A stretch of DNA of 64,000 nt, taken from NCBI GenBank assembly GCA_021801235.1, contig JAJYYG010000054.1:2794-66793 (forward strand), written 5' to 3'. Positions within the stretch are counted from its first letter, which is position 1. The number at the start of each line of letters is the position of its first letter. The position numbers and the translations under genes were made by a program. Below are positions 1 through 12,409 of this stretch, in pieces. The notes under the pieces are model-generated. The model ran no database searches and had not been told where the DNA came from. It was given only the letters and a program-made list of their open reading frames with translations. The stretch is from Actinomycetes bacterium. Lineage in GTDB: Bacteria; Actinomycetota; Acidimicrobiia; Acidimicrobiales; RAAP-2.

Positions 1-598
1 CCGCGTGGGCGATCTCCATCGCCTCGCGCATCCCGGACTTGGCGACCGGCTGCTCCCAGAGGTATCCCTCGAGGTAGACCACCTGGGCGGACGACAGGTG
101 GTCGCGCTGGAGGTCCGCCGGCCCGAGCTCGGCGGAGACCCCGAGGTGGGTAGCCATGGTCCGCTCCGCATCCTCGGTGACCAGCACCAGGCAGTGGCCG
201 GTCCCCGACTCCCCCGTTCCGGGAAGGGCCGGCGCGGGATCGAAAGCCACCCCGACCGCCCGGATGTCGTGGGTGAACGCCATGCCCAGCGGATCGTCCG
301 CCACCCGGCCAACGAACGCGGCCCGGCCTCCGAGGGAGGCGATCCCGGCCACCGTGTTGGCGGCGGAGCCCCCGGACGCCTCGGTCGTCTCGCCCATCGT
401 GGCGTAGATCGCCTCGGCACGGTCCCGGTCGACCAGGGCCATGGTGCCCTTGGCCAGCCCGAGCTGGTCGAGCTCGGAATCGGTCGCCCGGGCCAGGACG
501 TCCACCAGGGCGTTCCCCACCGCCACCACGTCGAAGCGGGGGCCCGGCGGCTCGTCGCGGTTGGGACCGGTCGTCTCGGCTGCGTGTTCGTTCTGCAC
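1..598 (-). CDS. PfkB-family carbohydrate/adenosine kinase (C-terminal part runs off the left window edge)
   Basis: Not in the ORF track because there is no stop inside the window. My reverse-strand translation from GTG at 598 reads VQNEHAAETTGPNRDEPPGPRFDVVAVGNALVDVLARATDSELDQLGLAKGTMALVDRDRAEAIYATMGETTEASGGSAANTVAGIASLGGRAAFVGRVADDPLGMAFTHDIRAVGV... and stays open to position 1. GNALVD and SGGSAANT are typical of the ribokinase/adenosine-kinase fold. Track ORF 5..625 (+) is its Arg/Gly-rich antisense shadow. Confidence 0.75.
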   Translation of the reverse strand, partial: MQNEHAAETTGPNRDEPPGPRFDVVAVGNALVDVLARATDSELDQLGLAKGTMALVDRDRAEAIYATMGETTEASGGSAANTVAGIASLGGRAAFVGRVADDPLGMAFTHDIRAVGVAFDPAPALPGTGESGTGHCLVLVTEDAERTMATHLGVSAELGPADLQRDHLSSAQVVYLEGYLWEQPVAKSGMREAMEIAHA

Positions 599-621
599 GG
601 TGCGACGGTAGCCTGCCCGGC

Positions 622-3246
622 ATGAGCGCTCCGACCGACGACCCTTCCACCGAGGCGGCCTCCGGGCCCGGAGCGGACCGCGCCGACGCGTACCGCCTGC
701 CGGCCGGGGTGCGCCCGTCCCGCTACCGCCTCGTCCTCGCCCCCGACCTCGAGGCCGCCACCTTCGGCGGCACGGTCGACATCGACGTCGAGGTCGACGA
801 GCCGGTGCGGTCGGTCACCTTGAACGCCGCCGAGCTCGACATCTCCTCTGCCACCCTGCACGTTGCCGAACGGGACCAGGACGTCGCCCCGGAGACGATC
901 CGGCTCGATGAGGAGGAGGAGCGGGCCGTCCTCACCTTCGGCGAACCGGTCCCCGCGGGGCCGGCCACGCTCCACCTCGAGTTCCGCGGCATCCTCAACG
1001 ACAAGCTCCACGGCTTCTACCGCTCGACCTTCCGGGACGACGACGGCGTCACCCGGGTCGTCGCCACCACCCAGATGGAGGCCACCGACGCCCGGCGCGC
1101 CTTCCCCTGCTGGGACGAGCCGGACCGCAAGGCCGTCTTCGAGGTCACCCTGGTGGTCGACGAAGGAGCGCACGCCTACTCCAACGGCCCGATCGTCGAG
1201 GAGACACCCGGGCCGGAGGGAACGCGGCGGATCCGCTTCGCCCCCACCATGCCGATGTCCACCTACCTGGTGGCGTTCGTCGTGGGCCCGCTCGAGGCCA
1301 CCGATCCGGTCGACGTCGACGGGGTGCCGCTGCGGATCGTCCACGCACCGGGCAAGGCCTCCCTCGCCCCGTTCGCCCTCGAGGTCGGCGCCCACGCCCT
1401 GCGGTTCTTCACCGACTACTTCGGCATCCCGTACCCGGCCGACAAGCTCGACCTGGTGGCCATCCCCGACTTCGCCTTCGGCGCCATGGAGAACCTGGGG
1501 TGCGTCACCTTCCGCGAGTCGGTGCTGCTGGTCGACCCGGCCCAGGCGGCACGCACCGAGCTCGAGCGGGTAGCGGACGTGGTCTGCCACGAGATCGCCC
1601 ACATGTGGTTCGGGGACCTCGTCACCATGAAGTGGTGGAACGGCATCTGGCTCAACGAGGCCTTCGCCACCTTCATGGAGGTGCTCGCCGTGGACGCGTT
1701 CCGCCCGTCATGGCACCGCTGGGTCAGCTTCGGCGTCGAGCGTGAGGCGGCGATGGCCGTCGACGGCCTGCATGCCACCCGGCCGGTCGAGTTCCCGGTC
1801 GGGCGGCCCGAGGAGGCCCAGGGTATGTTCGACGTGCTCACCTACCAGAAGGGCGGGAGCGTGCTCCGCATGTTGGAGCAGTACCTCGGCCCCGACGTCT
1901 TCCGCGACGGGATCCGCGGGTACCTCACCGAGCACCGCTACGGCAACACCGAGACCACCGACCTCTGGGACGCGCTCGAGCAGGCCAGCGGCAGGCCGGT
2001 CCGGGACATCATGACCACCTGGATCGACCAGGGCGGCTACCCGCTGGTGCGCGTGGACGCGGACGGGAACCTCACCCAGTCCCCGTTCTCCTATCGCGGC
2101 ACCCCGGGTGGCGCCATCGGCTCGGCATGGAAGGTGCCGGTCCTCACCCGCCCCCTCGGGGATGGCGACCCCGGCCCCGGGTCCCTCCTGCTCGACGGCC
2201 CGGGCCGTACGGCAGAGGGCGTCGCCCGCGGTCAGGTGGTGAACGCCGGGGGATCGGGCTTCTACCGGGTGGCGTACCCGGCGCCCATGGTGGAGGCGCT
2301 GGCGAAGGCGGTGGGCACCCTCGCCCCGCTGGAGCGTTACAACCTCGTGTCCGACACCTGGGCCGCCGCCTTGGCCGGCCAGGGTCCCGTGGCTGACGTC
2401 CTCCGGCTCGCCGATGCCCTCGCCGCCTCCGGCGAGGGCGATCCCAGTGTCTGGTCGGTCGTCTTCGGCGCCTTCGGCCTCTTCGACCGGGTCATCCCCG
2501 ACAAGGACCGTCCGGCGCTGGCCGGTGCCGTCCGGTCCCTGTTCGGCCCCCTGGTGGCGACCCTCGGCTGGGATCCCCGCCCCGAGGACACCGAACGGAC
2601 CCCGATGCTGCGGGCGGCGGTGTTGCGGGCGCTCGGCACTGTCGGTGAGGACGGTGGGGTGCGCGACGAAGCGCGACGGCGGTTCGATCTGGCCGGCGGG
2701 GGTGGGCCGGCCCTCGACGCGGACACCGAGTCCGCGGTCCTCGACATCGTGGCCGCGGGAGGCGGCGCCGACGAGTTCGACCGGTTCCTGGCGCGGTACC
2801 GCTCCCCCGCCACCCCCCAGGAGGAGAACCGCTACCTGTACGCGCTGGCCTCGTTCGACCAGGCGCAGCTCGCGGGGCGCGCCTTCGACCTGGCCATGGG
2901 CGAGGTGCGCACGCAGAACGCGCCCTTTGTGCTCCAGGCGTTGATCGCCAACCGCGTGACCGGACCGGAGACCTGGCAACGGGTCGTGGACCGCTGGGAC
3001 GAGCTGGTGGAACGGTTCCCGGCGAACATCCTCCCCCGGATGCTCGACGGCGTGCGCACGTTGTGCAGCCCACCGTCGCTCGCCGAAGAGGTGACCGCGT
3101 TCGTCCGGAGCCACCCCCTGCCCGCAGGCGGTCGGACCGTCGAGCAGATCCTCGAGCGCCTGGACGTCAACGTGGCGTTCGGCCGGCGCGAGGGCGAGGG
3201 GCTCGCTGACCTCCTGGTGGACCGGTTCGGGACCGGGGAGGCCTGA
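622..3246 (+). CDS. pepN: Aminopeptidase N (M1 zinc metallopeptidase)
   Basis: 874 aa. Has the GAMEN exopeptidase motif (FAFGAMENLGCVTF) and the HEIAHMWFGD...WLNEAFA zinc site (HEXXH-18-E), plus a long ERAP1-like C-terminal domain. Confidence 0.95.
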   Translation: MSAPTDDPSTEAASGPGADRADAYRLPAGVRPSRYRLVLAPDLEAATFGGTVDIDVEVDEPVRSVTLNAAELDISSATLHVAERDQDVAPETIRLDEEEERAVLTFGEPVPAGPATLHLEFRGILNDKLHGFYRSTFRDDDGVTRVVATTQMEATDARRAFPCWDEPDRKAVFEVTLVVDEGAHAYSNGPIVEETPGPEGTRRIRFAPTMPMSTYLVAFVVGPLEATDPVDVDGVPLRIVHAPGKASLAPFALEVGAHALRFFTDYFGIPYPADKLDLVAIPDFAFGAMENLGCVTFRESVLLVDPAQAARTELERVADVVCHEIAHMWFGDLVTMKWWNGIWLNEAFATFMEVLAVDAFRPSWHRWVSFGVEREAAMAVDGLHATRPVEFPVGRPEEAQGMFDVLTYQKGGSVLRMLEQYLGPDVFRDGIRGYLTEHRYGNTETTDLWDALEQASGRPVRDIMTTWIDQGGYPLVRVDADGNLTQSPFSYRGTPGGAIGSAWKVPVLTRPLGDGDPGPGSLLLDGPGRTAEGVARGQVVNAGGSGFYRVAYPAPMVEALAKAVGTLAPLERYNLVSDTWAAALAGQGPVADVLRLADALAASGEGDPSVWSVVFGAFGLFDRVIPDKDRPALAGAVRSLFGPLVATLGWDPRPEDTERTPMLRAAVLRALGTVGEDGGVRDEARRRFDLAGGGGPALDADTESAVLDIVAAGGGADEFDRFLARYRSPATPQEENRYLYALASFDQAQLAGRAFDLAMGEVRTQNAPFVLQALIANRVTGPETWQRVVDRWDELVERFPANILPRMLDGVRTLCSPPSLAEEVTAFVRSHPLPAGGRTVEQILERLDVNVAFGRREGEGLADLLVDRFGTGEA

Positions 3247-3659
3247 CCCGCCCGCACGGCACGGCCTGACCCGAGAGCACAGCGGACCGGGTCTCGGAGG
3301 CTCCTGAAGGAGAGGTGGTCCAGCAACCGGTCAATCCGCAGGATGGCGTAGGGCACGTTCACGGGGGTCCCCGGGAGTCGCCCTGGGAGCTGATCCGCCC
3401 CTCGTACTTCCTGGATCCCCCAGTGCTGGCCTGGCTCCGGACCCGGTTCTTTCGTCCTCCCCATGGATGACGTACGAAGTGGGTGATCGTGGGCTCCACC
3501 TTGAGCCAGAGCCGGTGGCAGCCGACTCGGCGCTCGGAACGGCGCGCGATCTCGGTGGAGGAAAGAAGGGCGAGCCTGATTCCCAGGAACCAATTCGATG
3601 GTCAGATGGCCAACGCGGGCTCAGGCATCGTCGCCTGGGCCGAGATCCCCCTGGGCCGG

Positions 3660-3917
3660 CTAGATGCCGACGAGGTACTTCGAGGACACCTTGGCGGATC
3701 CGTCGAAGTAGTTGGCGTGGGTAAGACGGACGGTGTCGAGCGAGTCTGAGCCGATCAGGACGATGTCGACCAGGTCCCGGTCCCGGAACTCATCCTCCTT
3801 CGCCGCATACGCGGCGACAGCCCGATCGCTCTCGATGCCGAACTCGATCTCCTCGATGAGCTTTCCAGCTGCGTGATCGAAGACGAGGAGGAAGTGCTTG
3901 ATGGGCTGGGATGTCAT
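3660..3917 (-). CDS. 85-aa acidic protein, candidate antitoxin or partner of the upstream RelA/SpoT-domain gene
   Basis: Its ATG overlaps the stop of the upstream gene in ATGA (3914-3917). The protein is Asp/Glu-rich (MTSQPIKHFLLVFDHAAGKLIEEIEFGIESDR...). GC is visibly lower than in the flanking genes. I recognise no family. Confidence 0.55.
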   Translation of the reverse strand: MTSQPIKHFLLVFDHAAGKLIEEIEFGIESDRAVAAYAAKEDEFRDRDLVDIVLIGSDSLDTVRLTHANYFDGSAKVSSKYLVGI

Positions 3918-4645
3918 GTGCTTCCTCCTGTCAGGTACGGGTTCGCGAGCTTCCTGAGGGACTTGATTCTATCCACCTGCACCTGCGGGACGACCGCCCC
4001 GTACTCCTCGGTCGCCATCGCCTCGGAAATGGCCTCCATGAGGTCGAGGACCTCGGCCGGCCCTCGGCCGCTCTTGAGGTCGGACCCGATCCGGCCGCTG
4101 AGTCGCTCGACCGTAATGGCCCATTCGTGCATCACCGTGGTGCGTAGCTGGATCTCGATCAACCGTCCGTCATACTCGACGATCACGTGAACGCCACGGT
4201 ACCCCGATGATTTGGGCGTCGTGATGTAGTCGTCGTAGCCGACGGGCGGCCTGTTCCTCCTGAGCCGACGCTCCACCCGACGGATTTCGTCGATGCTGGT
4301 GAGCACTGCCCTGCATCCGCCGATGTCCTGCATTGCGCTGAGCCGCATCGTCGGGTGCAGGTCGAGCTTCGCGAGGATTGTGGGTGCCCTTTTGAGACGC
4401 TGGGACACCTCCACTCGACACCGCTCGGTGGTGACCATCGACCGCAGTCCCATGTTCGCCTTGCTCAGGGGGTACTGATGGGCGGCCCGGTAGGCGAACA
4501 GAACCTCGGCGGCGCGGAGGAGCTTGTCTCCGACTTCAGCGTCAGTCAGCCCTCTCAGGTCACCGTGCCGGTAGCGCCTGATCATGCTGCCCGCTTTGTC
4601 GACCTGGGACTTTGATGGACATGCTGGCCGTTGGACCACGCTCAA
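3914..4645 (-). CDS. Single-domain RelA/SpoT-family nucleotide pyrophosphokinase (small alarmone synthetase / toxSAS-like)
   Basis: 243 aa, basic. Synthetase-domain motifs are RLKRAPTILAKL, MQDIGGCRAV, SSGYRGVHVIV and IEIQLRTTVMHEWA. No HD hydrolase, TGS or ACT regions. The track start is TTG at 4645; GTG at 4639 is an alternative. Confidence 0.8.
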   Translation of the reverse strand: MSVVQRPACPSKSQVDKAGSMIRRYRHGDLRGLTDAEVGDKLLRAAEVLFAYRAAHQYPLSKANMGLRSMVTTERCRVEVSQRLKRAPTILAKLDLHPTMRLSAMQDIGGCRAVLTSIDEIRRVERRLRRNRPPVGYDDYITTPKSSGYRGVHVIVEYDGRLIEIQLRTTVMHEWAITVERLSGRIGSDLKSGRGPAEVLDLMEAISEAMATEEYGAVVPQVQVDRIKSLRKLANPYLTGGST

Positions 4646-4883
4646 CCCTAGCCAGCGAGCTCCGGGGGCAACCTCGGGGGCTCCTCAGGGGGAGATGGTC
4701 CTGCGGCCGGTCGGCCCGTCGGCAGGGGGTAGGACCCCCGCAGCAGCGCGCCGAGCAAGCTACGGGGGTCCTCGGGCCGGACTGGACATTCGAACAACCG
4801 ATCGCCGAGGCCAATTCTGGCCAACCTGCCCGCGGATCGCGAATCGAGCAGCGACTGCTTCAGGAGTCTCCTAGCCTTGCCCG

Positions 4884-5471
4884 GTGGACCTGGGCGTGAC
4901 GCTGACCGTGTTCGCGCTCATCCTCGTGGCGGAGATCCCCGACAAGACGATGATCGCCATGCTCATCATGGGGAGCCGCAGCCGGCCGTTGTGGGTCTGG
5001 CTCGGGGCGGTCTCGGCGTTCACCGTGCACGTGGCGGTGGCGGTGGCGGTGGGCCATCTCATCGAGCGGCTCCCTCGTCACTGGGTCGAGGGGATCACCG
5101 CGCTGATCTTTGCCGCCGGAGCGGCGTACCTGCTCCTGGTGCCGGAGAAGGTTGCGGAGGAGGCCGGCGAGGAGGAGGCCGACGGTGCCGACCGTGCGCT
5201 CAAGACGTTCGGTGCGTCGTTCGCCGTGATCATCGTGGGGGAGTTCGGCGACCTCACCCAGATCCTCACCGCCAACTTGGCCGCCAAGTACCACTCCGCC
5301 CTGTCCGTCTTCGTCGGCGCCCTGGCCGGCCTCGCCGCCGCCTCGGCGGTGGGCGCCTTCGGCGGCAAGGCACTCCTCCGGGTCATGCCGCTCTCCGCCA
5401 TCAGGAAGGCCGGCGGCGTGCTGCTCGCCGGGTTCGCCGTCTACACCCTGGTGACGCTCCTCGGAGGGTGA
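4884..5471 (+). CDS. UPF0016 / GDT1 / TMEM165-family cation (Mn2+/Ca2+) transporter
   Basis: 195 aa and hydrophobic, built of two repeats. Each repeat carries the E-x-G-D-(K/L)-T signature (AEIPDKT and GEFGDLT). GTG start. Confidence 0.85.
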   Translation: MDLGVTLTVFALILVAEIPDKTMIAMLIMGSRSRPLWVWLGAVSAFTVHVAVAVAVGHLIERLPRHWVEGITALIFAAGAAYLLLVPEKVAEEAGEEEADGADRALKTFGASFAVIIVGEFGDLTQILTANLAAKYHSALSVFVGALAGLAAASAVGAFGGKALLRVMPLSAIRKAGGVLLAGFAVYTLVTLLGG

Positions 5472-5496
5472 CCCGGCACGGTCGGCGCGTCCACCG

Positions 5497-6300
5497 GTGC
5501 CCCGGGGGGGCGGTGCTTCGGCCGGCTCCCGTCCCCGCTCCGGTCCCCGGGCTCCGGGACCCCGGGTCCGGCCGGCCGCCGGGCCGTGCCAGGCTGGGGC
5601 GGTGCATCCCGACTCGCCCACCCCCACGGAACGATCCCGCACCTCCCCGACCGCCGGGGCCGGCGACCGACGGGCGAGGCTGGTGGAGCTCGCCCGGGCG
5701 GCCACCGGGTTCATGCCGGACGACGAAGGCGAGGCGCTCCTGGCGGCGGCCCTCCGGGCGGGTGAGGCGTTCCCCGACGCCACCTTCGTGGAGATCGGCG
5801 CGTGGTGCGGCAAGTCGACGGTCTACCTGGGGGCGGCGGCGGAGGCGACCGGGGCCGTCCTCTTCAGCCTCGACCACCACCACGGTTCGGAGGAGAACCA
5901 GGCAGGATGGGAGCACCACGACCCTACCCTGGTCGACCCGGCCAGCGGGCGTATCGACACCCTCCCCCGCTGGCGACGGACCGTGATGGGCGCCGACCTC
6001 GAGCGGTCGGTGGTCGGCCTGGTCGGGGACTCCCCGGTGGTGTCCTCCCGCTGGACCACGCCGCTCGCCCTCTGCTTCATCGACGGAGGCCACGGGGAGG
6101 AGCCGGCGTGGGCCGACTTCCGGGGCTGGTCGCCCCACGTCGCCGAGGGGGCCTGGCTGGCCATCCACGACGTGTTCCCCGACCCGGCGGACGGGGGGAG
6201 ACCGCCGTACGACCTGTGGTGCCATGCGCTCGACTCGGGGGCCTTCGTCGAGGACGGCGAGACGGGGTCCCTGCGGATCCTCCGACGGGTGGGCCGCTGA
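5497..6300 (+). CDS. Class I SAM-dependent methyltransferase (O-methyltransferase / Methyltransf_24-like)
   Basis: The C-terminal ~220 aa look like a Rossmann methyltransferase (FVEIGAWCGKSTVYL, CFIDGGH, LAIHDV). The N-terminal ~35 aa of the track ORF are Arg/Pro-rich, so the real start may be the in-frame GTG at 5602. Confidence 0.7.
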   Translation: MPRGGGASAGSRPRSGPRAPGPRVRPAAGPCQAGAVHPDSPTPTERSRTSPTAGAGDRRARLVELARAATGFMPDDEGEALLAAALRAGEAFPDATFVEIGAWCGKSTVYLGAAAEATGAVLFSLDHHHGSEENQAGWEHHDPTLVDPASGRIDTLPRWRRTVMGADLERSVVGLVGDSPVVSSRWTTPLALCFIDGGHGEEPAWADFRGWSPHVAEGAWLAIHDVFPDPADGGRPPYDLWCHALDSGAFVEDGETGSLRILRRVGR

Positions 6301-6370
6301 CGGCCGGGGCACGACCGGTCCGGGCGGCCGAGCACCCCGACAGGCGGTCAGGCCTCGCGTCCCGCAGCGG

Positions 6371-7471
6371 TCACTCGGGCATGCCCGCCCTCCCGGGGAG
6401 AGCGGGCTCCACCGGTGCCCCCGGGGCAGGCTCGGTGAGGTCGAGATGGGTCGGCAGGCCCTCGCCGCGGAACAGGCCCGACGCGGGGGTCGCCCGCCCG
6501 AGCGCGTCGGCGGCCAGCACCATGGCCCCCGCCGTGTACGTCGACCGTTCCAGCGGGGGGTAGGTCGCCTCCTCCGGGTAGACCATCCCCGTCCAGTAGG
6601 TGCCGTCCTCGTTCCGGAGGGCCTGGGCCCAGGCCAGCAGGTCCCGGGCCTCCCCGTCGCGCTCCAGCGCGTCCAGCGCCAGGACGCACTCCGCCGTCTC
6701 CGCCGCGGTGACCCACTCGCCGGTCGAGACACACCGCACCCCGAACCCCTCCATCACGAACGCGTCCCACGACCGGTCGATCAGCGCGTGGGCGGCGGCG
6801 CCGGTCACCGCGCCCGACAGCACCGGGTAGTACCAGTCCATGGCGAACTCCACCTTCGGGGCGAAGGCCGCCGGGTCGTGGGCGACAGCGTGCGCCAGCC
6901 GGCCGGCGGCGAACTCCCAGTCCGGCCGCTCGTGCCCGAGCGCTTCGGCCGTGGCGACGGCGCACCGGAGGCTGTGGTAGATCGACGAGGAACCGGTCAG
7001 GAGGGCGTACTCCTCCCGCCGTCCGGAGGCGTCGAGCGACCACGAGATGGAGCCGTCCGGTCGTTGCCAGCGTAGGACGAAGTCGATCCCCGCGGCCACC
7101 GCCGGCCAGAGCGACTCGAGACCGGCGGCGTCCCCGGTGGAGACGTACCGGTGCCACGCCCCGGCGGCGAGGTAGGCGCAGACGTTGGTGTCGAGCCTCG
7201 GGTCCTTGATGCCGTGCGCCAGGTAGTAGTTGAACCAGCTCCCGTCGGGGAGCTGGTTGTCGACCAGCCACCGGTAGGCGCGGTCGGCCTCGTCGTCGAA
7301 GCCGCAGGCGGTGAGGGCCATCGCCGCCTCGACGTGGTTCCACGGGTCGCAGTGCCCGCCCGGGAACCAGGGGATCATCCCGTCGGCGCGCTGGACGTCG
7401 GCGATCGAACGGGCGGTCGCCAGCACCTGTGCGGCGGTGAGGATGCCCGGGACCTCCGGGACCGCCCTCAT
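6371..7471 (-). CDS. Prenyltransferase / squalene-oxidase-repeat (alpha-alpha toroid, terpene-cyclase-like) protein
   Basis: Re-called start at the ATG at 7471 (MRAVPEVPG...), residue 158 of track ORF 6371..7942. Repeated DG-aromatic motifs are QRADGMIPWF, QLPDGSWFNY, QRPDGSISWS and NEDGTYWTG. The ATG overlaps the upstream stop in ATGA (7468-7471). Confidence 0.65.
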   Translation of the reverse strand: MRAVPEVPGILTAAQVLATARSIADVQRADGMIPWFPGGHCDPWNHVEAAMALTACGFDDEADRAYRWLVDNQLPDGSWFNYYLAHGIKDPRLDTNVCAYLAAGAWHRYVSTGDAAGLESLWPAVAAGIDFVLRWQRPDGSISWSLDASGRREEYALLTGSSSIYHSLRCAVATAEALGHERPDWEFAAGRLAHAVAHDPAAFAPKVEFAMDWYYPVLSGAVTGAAAHALIDRSWDAFVMEGFGVRCVSTGEWVTAAETAECVLALDALERDGEARDLLAWAQALRNEDGTYWTGMVYPEEATYPPLERSTYTAGAMVLAADALGRATPASGLFRGEGLPTHLDLTEPAPGAPVEPALPGRAGMPE

Positions 7472-8319
7472 CCGCCCGAGCCCACCGTCGACGCCCGGCG
7501 CTGGGGTGTGCCGGGCCCGCCCTCCCCCGGCGCGACCTCGCTCGCCGCCGCCCGGGGCACGATCGACCTGGCGCCGGACAGCGGGGCGATTGGGGGTCCG
7601 TCCGGCGACGGCTTGGCCAGGTACACCACCAGGCTCTTGCCGACCAGCGGGTTGAGCACCCGATCCGTCCACCGGGTGAGCTTCGGTGCCTTGGTGATGT
7701 CCCACACCAGCAGCCGGTGGTAGGCGGCGACCGCCGGGTGGTCCTCGTTGGTCGTCCCCACCAGGCAGCGGAGCCACCAGTAGGGGGCGTGCAGCCCGTG
7801 GGCGTGGGCGTGGGCGGTCGCCACCATGCCGGCGGACTCCAGCCGCCCGACCAGCTGGCTCCGGCGGTAGATGCGCACGTGGCCGCCGGGGACGTCGTGG
7901 TACTCGTCGGAGAGGGCCCAGTTGACGAACTCGGGGCCGCAACGGGGAACGGTCACCGCCATCGTCCCCCCGGGCCGCAGGACCCGTGCCAGCTCGTCGA
8001 TGGCCACCTGGTCGGCGGGGATGTGCTCGAGGACCTCGGAGGCGATCACCCGGTCGAAGGCGCCGTCGGGGAACGGGAGCCGGAGGGCGTCCCCCCGGAC
8101 CGCCCCCACCCGGGCGCGCTCCGCGTCGAGCTCCCCGGCGTCGGCCATGGCCCCGAACGTGTCACGCACGGCGCGGACCTCGTCCGCTCCGGCGTCGAAC
8201 GCCACCACCTCGGCCCCGAGGCGGGCGGCCTGGAAGGCGTGGCGCCCGAACCCGCAGCCGAGGTCGAGGAGCCGGTCGCCCGGCCGCACCCCCAACCTGG
8301 CATAGTCGACGGTCAGCAC
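7468..8319 (-). CDS. SAM-dependent methyltransferase (Methyltransf_11 type)
   Basis: Re-called start at the GTG at 8319 (VLTVDYARLG...) inside track ORF 7468..9501. Motif I is LLDLGCGFGRHA, with post-I AFDAG and RPGGTMAV. The start overlaps the end of the upstream glycosyltransferase (GTGCTGA). Confidence 0.85.
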   Translation of the reverse strand: MLTVDYARLGVRPGDRLLDLGCGFGRHAFQAARLGAEVVAFDAGADEVRAVRDTFGAMADAGELDAERARVGAVRGDALRLPFPDGAFDRVIASEVLEHIPADQVAIDELARVLRPGGTMAVTVPRCGPEFVNWALSDEYHDVPGGHVRIYRRSQLVGRLESAGMVATAHAHAHGLHAPYWWLRCLVGTTNEDHPAVAAYHRLLVWDITKAPKLTRWTDRVLNPLVGKSLVVYLAKPSPDGPPIAPLSGARSIVPRAAASEVAPGEGGPGTPQRRASTVGSGG

Positions 8320-9818
8320 GGCGCTCCGTTGCTTCGGGACGCGGCGTCGGCGCTGCCGGAGGCACGGATTCGGAATTCCGGCCCAGCCCGCTCCCGGGCG
8401 GCGGCCAGCAGCTCCCGGTACTCCGCGGCGGTCCCGGACGCGGTGACCTGCCAGGTGAACCGCCCCAACACCCGCTCGCGGCCGGCGGCCCCCAGACGGA
8501 GCCGCAGCCCGGGGTCGTCGAGCAGCCGGCCGATGGCGGTCGCCAGCGCGCCCGGATCGTCGGGTGGGACGAGCAGACCGGTCACCCCGTCGGTGCCGAC
8601 CACCTCGGGGAGCGCCCCGCCGGTGGTGGCGACCAGGGCGACGCCGCAGGCCATCGCCTCGATCGCCGGCAACGAGAACCCCTCGTAGAGGGACGGCACC
8701 ACCGCCACCTCCGCCCGCGCGTAGTTGCGGGCGAGCTCGTCGTCGCTGATCCCGGTGATGCACCGCACCACCGGGGCCAGGTCCAACCGCTCGATGGCAC
8801 GGGCCACCCGGCCGTCGGGACGGGGGTTGCCGATCACCACCAGCTCGATGGATCGTTCGGTGCGGAGCTTGGCCACCGCCTCGAGGAGGGGGACCAGCCC
8901 CTTCATCGGGACGTCGGACGACGACGTCACCATGATGCGGCCCGGGACCGGCACCACCTCGGGCCGCGGCCGGAACACCGTGTGGTCGACGCCCACCGGC
9001 ACCACCGTCATCCGGGCCGGCTCCACCCCCATCTGGGATGCGATGTCCCGCTTCGACGACTGCGACACCGTCACCACCCGGGGCAGGGCCCGGGCCACCC
9101 GCACCTGCATCCGGAGGAAGCCGAACCAGCGCCGCTGGGTGAAGCGCTGCCACGGGTTGGCGGCGTGGCTGAGCGCGAGCTGGCGGTCGACGGTGATCGG
9201 ATGGTGCAGGGTCGTCAGCACCGGCCAGCCGTCCTCGATCATCCCGAGGATCCCGTTCCCGAGGCACTGGTTGTCGTGCACCAGGTCGAACTCCGTGCGC
9301 CGGGCGGCGAGAAGGCGCCGGGCGCGCAGGCTGAACGTCCAGGGCTCCGGGAACCCGGCGGTGCACATGACCCCGAACTCGAGGGCGTCGGCCGGGCTGT
9401 GGAACTCGCGGAGGTGGGGCACCCGGAAGGGGTCCGGGTCGCGGTAGAGGTCGAGGCTGGGGACGGGCGTGAAGCCCACGCCGTCGTCGACCTCGGGCCA
9501 CGGCTGGCCGGCGAACACCTCCACCGAGTGGCCGAGGGCGACCAGCTCGCGGGTCAGGTGCCGCGTGTAGACACCCTGCCCGCCACAGCGCGGGTTGCCC
9601 CGGTAGACGAGGAACGCGATCCGCAGACCGTCGGGCCCCGGTGGGCGGGGCGGGATCCGTTCGGGGACCGGAGGCGGGATCGCCGGGCCCTTGACCTTGT
9701 GACGCCTGAGCCAGAGACTAGGCACGGTCCGCCCTGGTGGATGGGTGCATAAGTCAGCAATCCTCCCCCGCCCGGGCGCCCCGGCGCAAACTCCACCGGG
9801 CGGTGCCGGCGCCGGCAT
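8313..9818 (-). CDS. GT4-family (GT-B fold) glycosyltransferase
   Basis: Typical GT4 core: RIAFLVYRGNPRCGGQGVYTRHL...EGFSLPAIEAMACGVALVATTGGALPEVV. The first ~60 aa of the track ORF are Pro/Arg-rich, so the true start is uncertain. Confidence 0.8.
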   Translation of the reverse strand: MPAPAPPGGVCAGAPGRGRIADLCTHPPGRTVPSLWLRRHKVKGPAIPPPVPERIPPRPPGPDGLRIAFLVYRGNPRCGGQGVYTRHLTRELVALGHSVEVFAGQPWPEVDDGVGFTPVPSLDLYRDPDPFRVPHLREFHSPADALEFGVMCTAGFPEPWTFSLRARRLLAARRTEFDLVHDNQCLGNGILGMIEDGWPVLTTLHHPITVDRQLALSHAANPWQRFTQRRWFGFLRMQVRVARALPRVVTVSQSSKRDIASQMGVEPARMTVVPVGVDHTVFRPRPEVVPVPGRIMVTSSSDVPMKGLVPLLEAVAKLRTERSIELVVIGNPRPDGRVARAIERLDLAPVVRCITGISDDELARNYARAEVAVVPSLYEGFSLPAIEAMACGVALVATTGGALPEVVGTDGVTGLLVPPDDPGALATAIGRLLDDPGLRLRLGAAGRERVLGRFTWQVTASGTAAEYRELLAAARERAGPEFRIRASGSADAASRSNGAPC

Positions 9819-9870
9819 GTGCCGGACGGGACCGGCCAGCCCTGCGCCCGGCCAGCTCCGCCCGCCCGGA

Positions 9871-11280
9871 TCAGCGTCCGCCCGCGTCCGCCGCCTTCAG
9901 CATCTGTCGGATGCCTTCCTCGATGCCCCGGCTGAGCACGTCGAGGTCGCCGGTGGTGTCGAAGTCGCCGGTGATCCCGAAGTTGACCTCCCCGTTGTAC
10001 GAGAAGATGGCGACCCCGATCCGCATCTGGGCGCCCAGTGGCACGTACGGGTAGGCCTTGACCATCCGCCTTCCGCAGACGTAGAGCGGGATCTGGGGGC
10101 CGGGCACATTGGTGGTGACGGTGTTGAGCTGGTGCTGGGCCATCCGGGTGGAGAGCCGCATCGCCAGGGCCAGCAGCATCGGCGGGGCGAAGCCCGACAT
10201 CGAGGTCAGTGCCTCCCCGGCCAGCGCCTGCTTCGACTCCTTCAGGCCCTCCATCTGGGCGCTCACCGCGGCCAGGCGCTCTCTGGCGTCGGTGATCGCC
10301 ACCGGGAGCTCGGCGAACATGGCCGAGACCTTGTTCTGGAGCGTGCCGTCGCCGACCGCCAGACCGTGGTCGTCCCGGGGGCGCACCGACACCGGGACCA
10401 GGGAACGGACCACGCGCTCGACCGGCTCCCCGCGCTCGAGGAGGAGCTCCCGGAAGCCGTTGGTGATGGCGGCCAGCACCACGTCGTTGAAGGTGCCTCC
10501 CAGCGCCCTGCGCACCGTCTTGATGTCGCTCACCGAGGTCGACGCCCATGCGTACCGCCGGTGGGGTCCCAACGGGCCGTTCAGGCTCGAAGGCGGTGTC
10601 GGCTTGACCAGGCCCACCATGGCGGTGAGCCCCCGGACCACCGATCGGGCGTGCCCGACCACCTGCCCGGGCACCGCGGCCGCCGCCCGCACCGCCTGGA
10701 CCTGCTCGTACGGGCTGTGCAGGAGGTCGAGAGAGGACCGGATCGCCAGCTCCACGCCCGACGGGGCCGGGCGCGGCTCCCACCGGGTCGGGAGCGGCAC
10801 GGGCGCGTCCGGTGACAGGTCCATGATCACGGCGAGCAGGTCGGTCCCCGAGACGCCGTCCACCATGGCGTGGTGGGTCTTCGCGAACAGGGCCCAGTGC
10901 CCGTCGTCGAGACCCTCGACCACCCAGATCTCCCAGAGCGGCTTGGACCGGTCGAGCGGCTGGGACATGACCCGTCCGACCAGCTTGCGGAGCTCGACCT
11001 CGCCCCCCGGAGCGGGCAGCGCGCTGTGCCGGACGTGGTACTCGATGTTGAAGTGCGGGTCGTCGACCCACACCGGCCGGCCCAGCTCGAACGGGAGGTG
11101 CCGCACCACCGACCGGTAGCGGGGCACCCGGTCGAGCTTGCCCTCGATCATCGCCACGATGTCCTCGAAGGCGGGCTGGGGTCCCTCGAAGATCCCGATC
11201 GAGGCGATGTGCATGTGGCTCACGCCGTCCTCGATGTGGAGGAACGTGGCGTCCAACGGGCTCAGTCGGTCGACGTCCAT
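9871..11280 (-). CDS. Wax ester synthase / diacylglycerol acyltransferase (WS/DGAT)
   Basis: Re-called ATG at 11280 (MDVDRLSPLDATFLHIED...), preceded by GGGGGTGG. Active-site motif HHAMVDG. C-terminal NVPGP...PLY region. 469 aa. Confidence 0.9.
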   Translation of the reverse strand: MDVDRLSPLDATFLHIEDGVSHMHIASIGIFEGPQPAFEDIVAMIEGKLDRVPRYRSVVRHLPFELGRPVWVDDPHFNIEYHVRHSALPAPGGEVELRKLVGRVMSQPLDRSKPLWEIWVVEGLDDGHWALFAKTHHAMVDGVSGTDLLAVIMDLSPDAPVPLPTRWEPRPAPSGVELAIRSSLDLLHSPYEQVQAVRAAAAVPGQVVGHARSVVRGLTAMVGLVKPTPPSSLNGPLGPHRRYAWASTSVSDIKTVRRALGGTFNDVVLAAITNGFRELLLERGEPVERVVRSLVPVSVRPRDDHGLAVGDGTLQNKVSAMFAELPVAITDARERLAAVSAQMEGLKESKQALAGEALTSMSGFAPPMLLALAMRLSTRMAQHQLNTVTTNVPGPQIPLYVCGRRMVKAYPYVPLGAQMRIGVAIFSYNGEVNFGITGDFDTTGDLDVLSRGIEEGIRQMLKAADAGGR

Positions 11281-11431
11281 CAGTCCACCCCCGGATCCTC
11301 TGCTCGGCCTGCGTCCGAGGCCCAGGCTGCCGACGGTACTACCGGCTCCCGGCCCGTGCCCGGCCGGTGTGCCCGGCCGGTGTGCCCGGACGCCCGCCGG
11401 CGCACCGACCGTGCACAACCCGCATCTGCGC

Positions 11432-12409
11432 TCACGCCGAGCTCCGCGACCCGGTTGCGCCGAGTGCCTCGAACCAGCCCGCCGCGATCCGCCGGACCGT
11501 CTCGGCTCGGGCGGCCTCGGCGACACGAGCCGACCGGCCCTCGTCCATGGCCCGGAAGCCCATCACGCCCAACATGCCCGCCGACGGCTCCACCCGCACC
11601 ACCCGTGCCCCCGCCGCCCGCAGCCGGCGCACCTCCCGATCGAGGCGGCGGTGCGCCGACCAGCGCACCAGGGCGTCCGGCCTCCGGCCGGGCAGGGACT
11701 CGGCCGACATGGGAGAGACGACCACCACCACCTCGGGCGCCCCGCGCCGCAGGACGTCCGCACTGGTGGGCGAGTGCACGCCACCGTCGAAGTACTCCAC
11801 ACCGCCGATCGTCACCGGGCAGAAGTACGCCGGGATCGCGCACGAGGCGAGGACGGCAGCGGCCAACGGAGCGGGGGGCGAGCCCTCCCGGCCGAACACC
11901 ACCCGGGTGCCGTCGTCGCGCCGGACGGCGCAGATCCACAACCGGTGGGGCCAGTGGTCGCCCACCATGCGGTGGAGCGGTGCTGCCCGGTCGCGGACGT
12001 CGACCCGGCCGGCCGGCAGCAACGTCATGGCGACCACGTCGGGCCGGACGGTCCACGGGCGCCGGGCCACCCGGGCGAGCAGGGCCGGCGCCGGCAACCG
12101 CAACGGCCGGAGCCACGACCCCGCCGAGGGGGCGGGGAGGTCGCCCTGGTCGGGGAGGACCCGGGCGACGAGGGCGGCCCCTGCCGGCGACAGCGGTCCG
12201 CCGCCGGCCATCGCCTCGAGGTCCGCCGCCGGGAGCCCGAGCCGGAGCAGCGTGCCGGTGATCGCTCCGGCCGAGGAGCCGACGACCACGTCGGCTGTCC
12301 GCGGGTCCCAACCGAGCACCTCGTCCAGAGCCCCCAGCACGCCGGCGTGGTAGGCCTGGCCGACGACACCGCCGGCTCCGAGCACCAGTCCGATTCCGTC
12401 TCTTCCCAC
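11432..12409 (-). CDS. Patatin-like phospholipase
   Basis: Re-called GTG at 12409 (VGRDGIGLVLGAGGVVG...). Oxyanion motif GAGGVVG, nucleophile elbow GSSAG, catalytic Asp in YFDGGV. Confidence 0.85.
   Translation of the reverse strand: MGRDGIGLVLGAGGVVGQAYHAGVLGALDEVLGWDPRTADVVVGSSAGAITGTLLRLGLPAADLEAMAGGGPLSPAGAALVARVLPDQGDLPAPSAGSWLRPLRLPAPALLARVARRPWTVRPDVVAMTLLPAGRVDVRDRAAPLHRMVGDHWPHRLWICAVRRDDGTRVVFGREGSPPAPLAAAVLASCAIPAYFCPVTIGGVEYFDGGVHSPTSADVLRRGAPEVVVVVSPMSAESLPGRRPDALVRWSAHRRLDREVRRLRAAGARVVRVEPSAGMLGVMGFRAMDEGRSARVAEAARAETVRRIAAGWFEALGATGSRSSA

Follow-up and report, generated by a model that had tools for sequence, protein, structure and literature searches.

The stretch of DNA analysed here (64,000 nucleotides, hereafter the window) carries an unfused toxin-antitoxin (TA) cassette of the CapRel/PhRel type that has been acquired horizontally, and this explanation as a whole, including the mechanism proposed below, is given a probability of about 0.8. 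The cassette is of a known kind, combining a RelA/SpoT toxin with a small cognate antitoxin (AT), and it is a clean further example and not a new class. The initial annotation had read the two genes as a bicistronic toxSAS toxin-antitoxin module, and this reading holds at the sequence level, with CapRel-SJ46 as the closest toxin and the AT strictly co-inherited.

The toxin and antitoxin genes

The toxin and the AT are encoded by two ORFs in different frames, unlike the single ORF of fused CapRel. The genes and the signals around them are as follows:

3914..4645, minus strand: toxSAS toxin gene, 243 aa from TTG 4645, with a CapRel/PhRel-type toxSYNTH domain and C-terminal anchor helices
3660..3917, minus strand: antitoxin gene, 85 aa, a standalone pseudo-ZFD (pZFD) of the ATcapRel/ATphRel family
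3914..3928, minus strand: translational-coupling junction as read from the sequence, with the SD GGAGGAAG at 3928-3921 and the AT ATG (3917-3915) over the toxin TGA (3916-3914)
3878..3937, minus strand: RNA hairpin (inverted repeat I6) in which the AT SD and start codon (3914-3929) are paired with AT codons 6-11 (3886-3901)
4646..4883, no strand assigned: intergenic region from which the toxSAS and GDT1 genes diverge, a presumed promoter region

The RelA/SpoT motifs quoted in the initial annotation (RLKRAPTILAKL, DIGGCRAV, GYRGVHVIV and IEIQLRTTVMHEWA) are all found in the toxin translation. The only Pfam domain is RelA_SpoT (PF04607, residues 82-176, E = 2e-16), and HD, TGS and ACT domains are absent, as had been claimed. 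Automatic gene callers place the toxin start at M21, which gives a protein of 223 aa. The reading of ~243 aa is preferable because the segment PSKSQVDKAG upstream of M21 is kept in the toxin homologues and in CapRel-SJ46. The adenine-coordination residues R83 and R112 correspond to R79 and R116 of SJ46 in the phmmer alignment, and the G-loop tyrosine Y149 corresponds to Y155. The Mg-binding D107 and the ExQ residues E164 and Q166 are also present. Across 39 toxin homologues, conservation at these positions is complete or at least 90%, and the predicted catalytic and ATP-donor residues of the toxin are all intact. The toxin has a pI of 9.8 and belongs to a family of about 1300 clusters. Two long homologues (P0144 and P0149) were considered as fusions and rejected, since they are N-terminal over-extensions.

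The best sequence match of the toxin in the PDB is CapRel-SJ46 (7ZTB/9ERV), with a phmmer E-value of 1e-16 compared to 7e-10 for RelQ. The AF2 model (pLDDT 94.7) shows one compact domain plus helices and also finds its best fold match in 7ZTB, over the full length (Foldseek E = 4e-13, TMq 0.75, 245 columns), while RelP and RelQ reach E-values of about 1e-8 and TM values of 0.45-0.57. Sequence and predicted fold identify the toxin as a CapRel/PhRel-type toxSAS with a single domain, closest to CapRel-SJ46. A grouping with housekeeping synthetases had been named beforehand as an alternative outcome; by pairwise scores the result goes against it, with CapRel closer in both sequence and fold. By pairwise scores the toxin leans towards CapRel (84.7 bits for SJ46, 58.5 bits for Phrann gp29), but the AT is closer to Phrann gp30, and the choice between the CapRel and PhRel subfamilies is tentative. 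The characterised relatives of the toxin are just 27-33% identical to it. Some annotation sources label the toxin as a "putative GTP pyrophosphokinase".

The AT is acidic (pI 4.8), and profile comparisons indicate homology both to Phrann gp30 and to the pseudo-ZFD antitoxin/sensor domain at the C-terminus of fused CapRel. The AT family HMM matches gp30 with an E-value of 5e-8 and residues 324-366 of SJ46 with an E-value of 3e-3, and hhalign aligns AT residues 8-74 with SJ46 residues 287-359 (probability 90.7%, E = 1.2e-6). The suggestion of the initial annotation that the antitoxin class may be undescribed is refuted by these matches, which place the AT in the ATcapRel/ATphRel family. This family has already been described (Jimmy et al. 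2020, PMC7229694; Zhang et al. 2022, PMC9712102). A sequence search of the PDB and a tblastn search of phage genomes with the AT gave no match; the relationships come to light with profile methods only. The AT also has no match in Pfam and NCBIfam, and a hydrolase (HD) domain is absent. Its homologues amount to 652 and 881 clusters. A 6967-aa protein with 18 "AT-like" stretches (P0245) has been dismissed as a false positive, as the stretches are identical repeats of 5.4 bits each.

The relation of the pair to fused CapRel is further illustrated by PADLOC PDC-S33, a single fused profile that is matched in register by the toxin at 8-234 (E = 1e-57) and by the AT at 264-331 (E = 2.4e-5). PHROG 4773 is likewise matched in register by both proteins, and in the concatenated toxin and AT alignment the split falls at the linker. 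PDC-S33 is a candidate defence profile, and its match to both proteins is consistent with the earlier label of a candidate toxin-antitoxin or defence module. One natural toxin-AT fusion is found in the close family (P0260), and fused forms are otherwise limited to distant relatives (L005, L006, L008 and L009). In Actinobacteria, CapRel pairs are mostly unfused (Zhang et al. 2022, PMC9712102), and the host of the present pair belongs to the Acidimicrobiales, as judged from its pepN gene.

The AF2 model of the AT (pLDDT 77) has strands at residues 7-14, 19-27 and 50-57 and helices at residues 30-43, 60-66 and 68-72. The predicted topology is b-b-a-b followed by two C-terminal helices, with a three-stranded sheet and a helix between the last two strands. 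In the Foldseek search with this model 7ZTB ranks 2-3 at an E-value of 0.44, below significance, and there is no other significant match. The invariant positions of the AT are V53-L54-x-G56, S57-D58-S59 and T66-H67-A-N-Y70-F71. The last of these motifs aligns with YPNY of SJ46, the published YXXY neutralisation motif, with the first tyrosine changed to histidine and the second tyrosine and the phenylalanine kept. Histidine occupies this first position in 143 of 144 family representatives, and Phrann gp30, a validated antitoxin, has the same form of the motif (THSRYF). Mutation of SJ46 V338, L339, A341, A351, Y352 and Y355 results in constitutive toxicity (PMC9712102), and the equivalent AT residues (V53, L54, G56, T66, H67 and Y70) are the most conserved positions of the AT. 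The invariant HFLLVFDH strand and the SDS loop of the AT clade have no counterpart in SJ46. In 18 of 21 locus pairs the toxin is the less conserved of the two proteins.

The ATGA overlap of the toxin stop and AT start codons noted in the initial annotation is confirmed at 3914-3917. The 4-nt overlap is also present in four relatives (L021, L023, L109 and L112), and the two genes are predicted to be translationally coupled. The hairpin over the AT start has a folding energy of -18.4 kcal/mol (z = -4.3), and none of 200 shuffles is equally stable. By sequestering the SD, this hairpin could restrict AT translation to ribosomes coming from the toxin ORF. Its function is uncertain because it is only partly and inconsistently conserved in relatives. 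The divergent intergenic region contains a palindrome with 14-nt arms (I7; 4731-4744 and 4759-4772). Scans of positions 3000-5100 for Rfam families, sigma-70 promoters and intrinsic terminators found none.

Insertion site and distribution of the cassette

The cassette lies between two host genes on the opposite strand, and the features of the insertion site are listed below:

622..3246, plus strand: pepN (M1 aminopeptidase), a host housekeeping gene at the left flank of the insertion site
4884..5471, plus strand: GDT1-family membrane protein gene at the right flank of the insertion site
3285..4870, no strand assigned: inserted islet, defined against the empty site in a close relative (L028), with approximate bounds (left 3250-3292, right 4870)
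3656..4657, minus strand: minimal mobile cassette, the only DNA common to the window and the closest relative (blastn against L021/L022, 84% identity)
3293..3312, plus strand: left arm of an imperfect 20-nt inverted repeat (17/20, I2) at the left insertion border, a candidate terminal repeat
4855..4874, minus strand: right arm of inverted repeat I2, at the right-hand border of the insertion, pairing with 3293..3312

The non-coding flanks, put at about 410 and 240 bp in the initial annotation, measure 413 nt (3247-3659) and 238 nt (4646-4883). The lower GC content that had been noted for the pair is also borne out, with a GC3 of 0.81-0.85 compared to 0.91-0.94 for pepN and the GDT1 gene. At 0.647, the GC content of the islet lies below the window mean of 0.728 (sd 0.022) and is the third lowest among 1249 sliding windows of 1586 nt; every lower window overlaps the islet. 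Apart from the cassette, the islet holds unshared non-coding DNA (about 370 nt and 213 nt), which has no match in the fetched loci or in the rest of the window.

The close relative L028 is colinear with positions 3-3217 and 4871-11526 of the window at 89-95% nucleotide identity. Its pepN-GDT1 gap, the counterpart of 3218-4870, is 137 nt long and has no cassette. Whether relatives carry the pair at the same locus had been proposed as a check on mobility, and the answer is negative, with the cassette present in none of 80 pepN-GDT1 loci. In L021/L022 the cassette stands in a different genomic context, and homology to the window stops at the ORF borders. The empty site, the low GC content, the homology confined to the cassette in L021, the many unrelated contexts and the phage-borne relatives all support the earlier proposal of horizontal acquisition. 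Judging from these comparisons, the cassette is horizontally acquired and has entered the gap between pepN and GDT1, which are conserved neighbours. The match of 17/20 between the boundary repeats is reached by none of 2000 shuffles and by 6 of 3000 real-sequence controls. Neither a target-site duplication nor another copy of the boundary repeat was found, and the window has no tRNA genes that could have served as integration targets. The neighbourhood in the window is housekeeping in character and not a defence island.

The pair recurs on 8 viral contigs and in no fewer than 10 chromosomal settings that are unrelated to one another. In each of 18 distinct loci examined (10 chromosomal and 8 viral) the AT gene directly follows the toxSAS gene, and the 85-aa ORF is thus conserved beside the toxin homologues, a point on which the initial annotation had asked for a check. 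In the window both genes are intact, and their sequences are identical across at least eight independent assemblies. In the closest relative, L021/L022, the toxin is frameshifted and has an R112K substitution and the antitoxin is intact. A tmRNA gene lies near the L021 pair, and a recombinase-like fragment upstream of it has not been confirmed by Pfam. On the phage sequence L113, a 54%-identical pair sits among tail and LysB-like genes. The clade is environmental, with members in Acidimicrobiales, Dormibacterota and other Actinomycetota, and plasmid relatives are distant (at most 36.5% identical). A conserved third gene has been rejected, as the ~74-aa ORFs that follow the AT in several relatives are mutually unrelated.

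Proposed mechanism and alternative explanations

CapRel and PhRel inhibit translation specifically, by pyrophosphorylation of the tRNA CCA end (bioRxiv 10.1101/2021.04.30.441581). Antitoxins of the pZFD type block the ATP donor site, and the mode of neutralisation follows the substrate class (PMC11782079). Validated TA pairs include capRel:aTcapRel of Mycobacterium sp. AB308 and Phrann gp29:gp30 (PMC7229694), and gp29/gp30 mediates superinfection defence (PMC9712102). By analogy, the toxin would be a tRNA 3'-CCA pyrophosphokinase to which the AT binds in trans. The hinge motif T-H67-x-x-Y70-F of the AT would insert between R83 and R112 and close off the adenine pocket in the ATP donor site; with this site plugged by the AT, the toxin would be held inactive. 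Release of the AT, either through a phage protein that binds the pseudo-ZFD, as in CapRel-SJ46, or through loss of the antitoxin, would activate the toxin, and the infection would be aborted or a superinfecting phage excluded. An abortive-infection defence role is plausible. Toxicity, tRNA modification and defence in this clade are extrapolated from the 27-33% identical relatives.

The same two genes may instead form a purely selfish, addictive or decaying TA cassette with no anti-phage role in this host, which is possible though clearly less probable. The housekeeping setting, the damaged toxin beside an intact antitoxin in L021/L022 and the unusual conservation of the antitoxin, which is not diversifying, would fit such a cassette. 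However, the pair in the window is intact and identical across independent assemblies, both proteins match a candidate defence profile, and the phage-borne relatives adjoin lysis and tail genes, as does Phrann gp29/gp30 (PMC9712102). It is improbable that the toxin of this cassette makes a toxic alarmone, (pp)pApp or (p)ppGpp, and depletes ATP like FaRel/Tas1 with the tRNA left unmodified. Both toxSAS types share the RelA_SpoT fold, and no sequence signature cleanly divides the tRNA-targeting from the nucleotide-targeting ones (bioRxiv 10.1101/2021.04.30.441581), but the closest characterised toxins (CapRel-SJ46, Mycobacterium AB308 CapRel and Phrann PhRel) all target translation. In addition, pZFD antitoxins pair with translation-targeting toxSAS, whereas makers of (pp)pApp pair with Tis1-like or SAH antitoxins (PMC11782079), and the partner here is without a hydrolase domain.

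Bicistronic toxSAS with an activating partner have lately been reported (bioRxiv 10.64898/2026.04.06.716658), and the 85-aa protein could in principle be an activator or sensor of an otherwise inert toxSAS in the style of PANGU NAP/GRel and no antitoxin. This is very unlikely given a partner that is acidic, is homologous to validated antitoxins and retains the residues of the predicted neutralisation interface, and a toxin with no extra acidic domain. Hardly credible is a housekeeping actinobacterial small alarmone synthetase beside an unrelated small ORF, for which the GTP pyrophosphokinase label could be cited. The toxin reaches only 44 bits against the cutoff of 320 for the NCBIfam YjbM equivalog, and CapRel is a better match than RelP and RelQ in both sequence and fold, by several orders of magnitude. 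The small ORF is also strictly co-inherited with the toxin, and the pair is missing from the same locus of the close relative and from all 80 syntenic loci.

Within the preferred reading, that of an unfused CapRel/PhRel-type TA cassette, the AT outconserves the toxin. The sensor domain of fused CapRel behaves in the opposite way and evolves fast, and the Red-Queen model of capsid sensing may therefore not transfer to this clade. A doubtful extension of this, which also draws on the HFLLVFDH strand and the SDS loop, is that the standalone H-x-x-Y antitoxins of this large environmental clade answer to a conserved cue or a different trigger and are not fast-evolving phage sensors. If true, the activation logic of split CapRel would be distinct from capsid sensing. 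A separate and equally doubtful proposal is that the islet is a transposase-less TA insertion cassette bounded by inverted repeats.

The locus offers a clean natural case of a split CapRel-type toxSAS TA cassette for which the empty site has been mapped. Such cassettes appear to travel as minimal two-gene units of ~1 kb in uncultured Acidimicrobiales and, in related clades, in actinophages. The antitoxin family is large (about 650-880 clusters), has no Pfam model and is annotated as "hypothetical protein", and an explicit link to ATcapRel/ATphRel improves this annotation. The constant H-x-x-Y-F motif and the higher conservation of the AT lead to testable hypotheses on neutralisation and triggering in bipartite CapRel/PhRel systems.

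Comparison with known systems

The present pair differs from PANGU type I (bioRxiv 10.64898/2026.04.06.716658), in which a basic nucleoid-associated partner accompanies a toxSAS with an acidic C-terminal DMK (DNA-mimic) domain; here the partner has a pI of 4.8, the toxin a pI of 9.8, and the extra domain is absent. In FaRel-type systems, the partner is a SAH (HD domain) or a Tis1-like protein, unlike the pZFD homologue found here. FaRel2:ATfaRel2 of Coprobacillus sp. D7 (PMC11782079) is more similar in its organisation, being a bipartite tRNA-targeting toxSAS with a small pZFD antitoxin that acts in trans on the ATP donor site. However, FaRel2 belongs to another toxSAS subfamily, ATfaRel2 is a circularly permuted and distant pZFD homologue, and no significant sequence match to the proteins of the window was found. 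The YXXY neutralisation motif is present in fused CapRel and in ATfaRel2.

The capRel:aTcapRel pair of AB308, a validated translation-inhibiting TA pair (PMC7229694), shares with the present cassette an actinobacterial host and a bicistronic arrangement in which a small antitoxin gene follows that of the single-domain toxSAS, often with an overlap. This likeness is one of description, not of sequence, and the present clade is environmental. Phrann gp29/gp30 likewise consists of two genes and lies near lysis and tail genes, as do the phage-borne relatives of the pair in the window, and its antitoxin is homologous to the AT (E = 5e-8; THSRYF compared to THANYF). Unlike the present toxin, to which it is 27% identical (58.5 bits), gp29 is a protein of 292 aa that continues into a long helical extension at its C-terminus, and gp30 has 71 aa and is without the conserved HFLLVFDH first strand.

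CapRel-SJ46 (7ZTB/9ERV; Zhang et al. 2022, 2024) is the top match of the toxin, with 32% identity and equivalents of R79, R116 and Y155, and the AT aligns with its pseudo-ZFD and YXXY hinge (287-359). CapRel-SJ46 is a single polypeptide of 373 aa, whereas the window has two genes and ~20 linker residues are missing. The hinge reads YPNY in CapRel-SJ46 and HANY here. Finally, the pseudo-ZFD is the most variable region of CapRel-SJ46, whereas the AT of the present pair is more conserved than its toxin.

The cassette and its translational arrangement

The two-gene cassette in the islet at 3285-4870 is, on well-supported grounds, a split toxin-antitoxin (TA) system of the known CapRel/PhRel type, and its antitoxin is not a new class. 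It consists of the following genes.

3914-4645, minus strand, toxin gene (243-aa RelA/SpoT protein, toxSAS; TTG start)
3660-3917, minus strand, antitoxin gene (85 aa; AT)

The initial annotation had described these two open reading frames with a shared ATGA at 3914-3917, and they have been found exactly as given. Every RelA/SpoT motif it quoted is present in the 243-aa protein. The absence of hydrolase, TGS and ACT parts is borne out, RelA_SpoT being the sole Pfam match (2e-16), as is the pairing of a basic toxin (pI 9.8) with an acidic partner (pI 4.8). The islet is also poorer in GC than the flanking genes, as had been noted. Its GC is 0.647 vs a window mean of 0.728 (sd 0.022), the lowest of any 1.6-kb stretch in the 64 kb, and GC3 is 0.81-0.85 in the cassette genes against 0.91-0.94 in neighbouring genes.

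In automatic gene calls, and in the public calls for the species, the toxin starts at an internal ATG (M21), giving 223 aa (window 4585-4645). The PSKSQVDKAG segment upstream of M21 is kept in homologues and aligns to the fused CapRel-SJ46 (hereafter SJ46), which favours the longer reading over the M21 start. The annotated toxin is probably 20 codons too short, and the 243-aa reading is preferred.

The AT Shine-Dalgarno sequence (SD), GGAGGAAG, lies at 3928-3921 within the 3' end of the toxin gene. In a stable hairpin at 3878-3937 (minus strand; -18.4 kcal/mol, z -4.3), AT codons 6-11, which encode the invariant HFLL motif, base-pair with the SD and the AT start codon. This SD-sequestering hairpin, found in some relatives only, could enforce translational coupling. 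A palindrome at 4731-4772 (14-nt arms, 93% complementary, 14-nt spacer) precedes the toxin start by ~90-125 nt, in a part of the islet absent from other cassette copies. It may serve as an operator or as an RNA element.

Identity of the toxin and the antitoxin

The toxSAS-like assignment of the toxin holds, with CapRel the best match by sequence and by fold and the catalytic residues kept. Among solved structures, the toxin sequence is closest to 7ZTB/9ERV, CapRel of Salmonella phage SJ46, a tRNA pyrophosphokinase (E 1e-16), with RelQ next (7e-10). The AF2 model of the toxin (pLDDT 94.7) matches 7ZTB over its full length (E 4e-13, TMq 0.75, 245 columns), compared with E about 1e-8 and TMq 0.45-0.57 for RelP/RelQ. 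Across 39 homologues there is little or no variation at toxin residues R83 and R112, the counterparts of the adenine-coordinating SJ46 R79 and R116, or at Y149, the counterpart of the G-loop residue Y155. Pairwise bit scores of 84.7 with SJ46 and 58.5 with the PhRel toxin gp29 of mycobacteriophage Phrann place the toxin in the CapRel/PhRel clade and suggest that it is nearer CapRel.

AT has no match in Pfam, NCBIfam or, by sequence, the PDB, and the initial annotation had considered that it might represent an undescribed antitoxin class. This suggestion is overturned by homology to Phrann gp30 (ATphRel) and to the pseudo-zinc-finger domain (pseudo-ZFD) of CapRel. The AT family is real and strongly conserved, with 652 clusters from a word-seeded search and 881 representative clusters from a full profile search, nearly all consisting of unfused proteins 80-110 aa long. 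A 6967-aa Thr/Asp/Val-rich repeat protein (P0245; E 3e-32 with the AT profile) was rejected as a false positive that scores only because 18 identical 234-aa repeats add a marginal 5.4 bits each. The family HMM matches gp30 (E 5e-8) and SJ46 residues 324-366. When the family profile was compared with a profile of seven fused CapRel-type proteins (probability 90.7%, E 1.2e-6), AT 8-74 corresponded to SJ46 287-359, which is the entire pseudo-ZFD plus hinge. Toxin and AT also match a single fused PADLOC profile, PDC-S33, in register (positions 8-234, 1e-57, and 264-331, 2.4e-5, respectively), and do likewise with PHROG 4773. The AF2 model of AT (pLDDT 77) has three strands, a helix between the last two, and then two short helices, which is the published pseudo-ZFD topology (PMC9712102). 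Foldseek with this model gave nothing significant; 7ZTB and 9ERV ranked second and third among about 350,000 chains.

The YXXY neutralisation motif of SJ46 (Y352-P-N-Y355-F) aligns to AT H67-A-N-Y70-F71, and SJ46 V338, L339, A341 and A351 align to AT V53, L54, G56 and T66. Substitutions at these four SJ46 residues or at Y352 and Y355 result in a constitutively toxic protein (PMC9712102), and AT V53, L54, G56, T66, H67 and Y70 are the most conserved residues across the family. His occupies the first position of the motif in 143/144 representatives and likewise in gp30 (THSRYF). In a concatenated toxin and AT alignment the split sits in the linker, after the anchor helices, and a natural 331-aa toxin-AT fusion in the close family (P0260) is joined at this point. 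A homologous antitoxin is common to PhRel and CapRel (PMC7229694). Given the homology to gp30 and fused CapRel, the motif alignment and the linker split, the AT class is the already described ATcapRel/ATphRel.

AT is directly downstream of toxSAS in every locus examined, mostly with the identical 4-nt overlap. AT homologues were found beside related toxSAS genes at all 10 chromosomal contexts (window, L001 (Dormibacterota), L002, L003 (Aeromicrobium), L021, L023, L108, L109, L111 and L112), each with a different cassette neighbourhood, and directly downstream in each of eight IMG/VR viral contigs; no third conserved gene accompanies the cassette among the loci compared. On a 58.6-kb phage contig (L113:6001-6980, IMG/VR UViG 3300012057_000002), toxSAS and AT are each 54% identical and sit among major tail, head-tail adaptor and LysB-like esterase genes, a position that recalls that of gp29/gp30 in Phrann. 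In an Acidimicrobiales MAG (L023:1968-3857), a 78%-identical AT pair lies ~850 nt from a gene for a 629-aa Cas1-domain protein (E 3e-34); the remaining genes around them are without annotation, and the locus may be casposon-like or associated with CRISPR.

Insertion between pepN and the GDT1 gene

Judged by pepN relatives, the host belongs to the Acidimicrobiales. Among 80 metagenomic loci that reach far enough upstream, nearly every one has pepN and the GDT1 gene side by side, for the most part 10-160 nt apart, and the cassette is present at this site in 0/80. L028, from a close relative, is an empty site. On either side of the insert it aligns colinearly to the window with 89-95% nucleotide identity, and in place of window 3218-4870 (1653 nt) it has 137 nt. 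With the nearest cassette relative (L021/L022) the window shares no more than 3656-4657, the two ORFs together with flanks of 12 nt and 4 nt. None of the refuting conditions set out in the initial annotation, when checked, overturned the horizontal acquisition it proposed, and with an empty site, varied contexts and cassette-only homology this reading stands. In other lineages the same spacer (L042:1472-3017, L077:5397-5995, L080:4939-6001 and in L070) carries an IS110-family transposase (L042), a universal stress protein (Usp) gene (L070, L077-79, L080) or a GYD-domain gene (L080), and it is thus a recurrently variable site.

Both insertion borders carry one arm of a repeat.

3293-3312 / 4855-4874, inverted repeat, 20 nt, imperfect (17/20)

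This repeat is matched in 0/2000 shuffles and 6/3000 real-sequence controls, and neither a target-site duplication nor a second copy of it was found. Such a repeat could delimit an insertion cassette that lacks a transposase. A 21-nt direct repeat at window 3240-3283 (GGCCTGACCCG..., 23 nt start to start) runs across the pepN stop codon. Only its second copy is similar to what follows the pepN stop in L028, which suggests a short duplication at the left junction.

Proposed mechanism and comparison with known systems

By homology, the 243-aa enzyme would be a tRNA pyrophosphokinase. Alarmone synthesis instead is unlikely, as the AT type speaks against it, and a housekeeping SAS is excluded since the toxin scores 44 bits with the NCBIfam RelQ equivalog, whose cutoff is 320. 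AT would bind the toxin in trans, putting H67 and Y70 between R83 and R112; an activator like that of PANGU, the NAP/GRel bicistronic toxSAS system, does not fit, since the architecture differs. The ATGA overlap, the strong SD and, in this locus, the SD/start-codon hairpin would provide translational coupling that ties AT synthesis to toxin synthesis, and release of AT would lead to translation arrest.

A role in defence or superinfection exclusion is plausible: the cassette matches a PADLOC candidate profile, phages carry relatives of it, and Phrann and SJ46 offer precedents. The cassette may also be a purely selfish or decaying TA, as in its nearest relative (L021:7261-8262, L022:660-1661; 84% nt identity) the toxin has decayed by a 1-nt deletion near codon 121 and R112K replaces the adenine-coordinating arginine, with AT intact. 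Two independent assemblies show this same change, which lies outside any homopolymer run. A tmRNA gene is located 2.1 kb downstream of AT in this relative.

The split CapRel/PhRel-type system departs from textbook CapRel in several respects. In 18/21 locus pairs AT shows higher conservation than the toxin (mean 63% vs 58%; window, L001-L003, L023, L108 and L112), whereas in fused CapRel it is the C-terminal sensor domain that varies most. The conserved AT, the H-x-x-Y motif and the border repeat leave the classification unchanged. SJ46 has YXXY where the AT family has H-x-x-Y throughout, and the invariant AT residues H8, D14 and H15 (HFLLVFDH) and S57-D58-S59 have no SJ46 equivalents.
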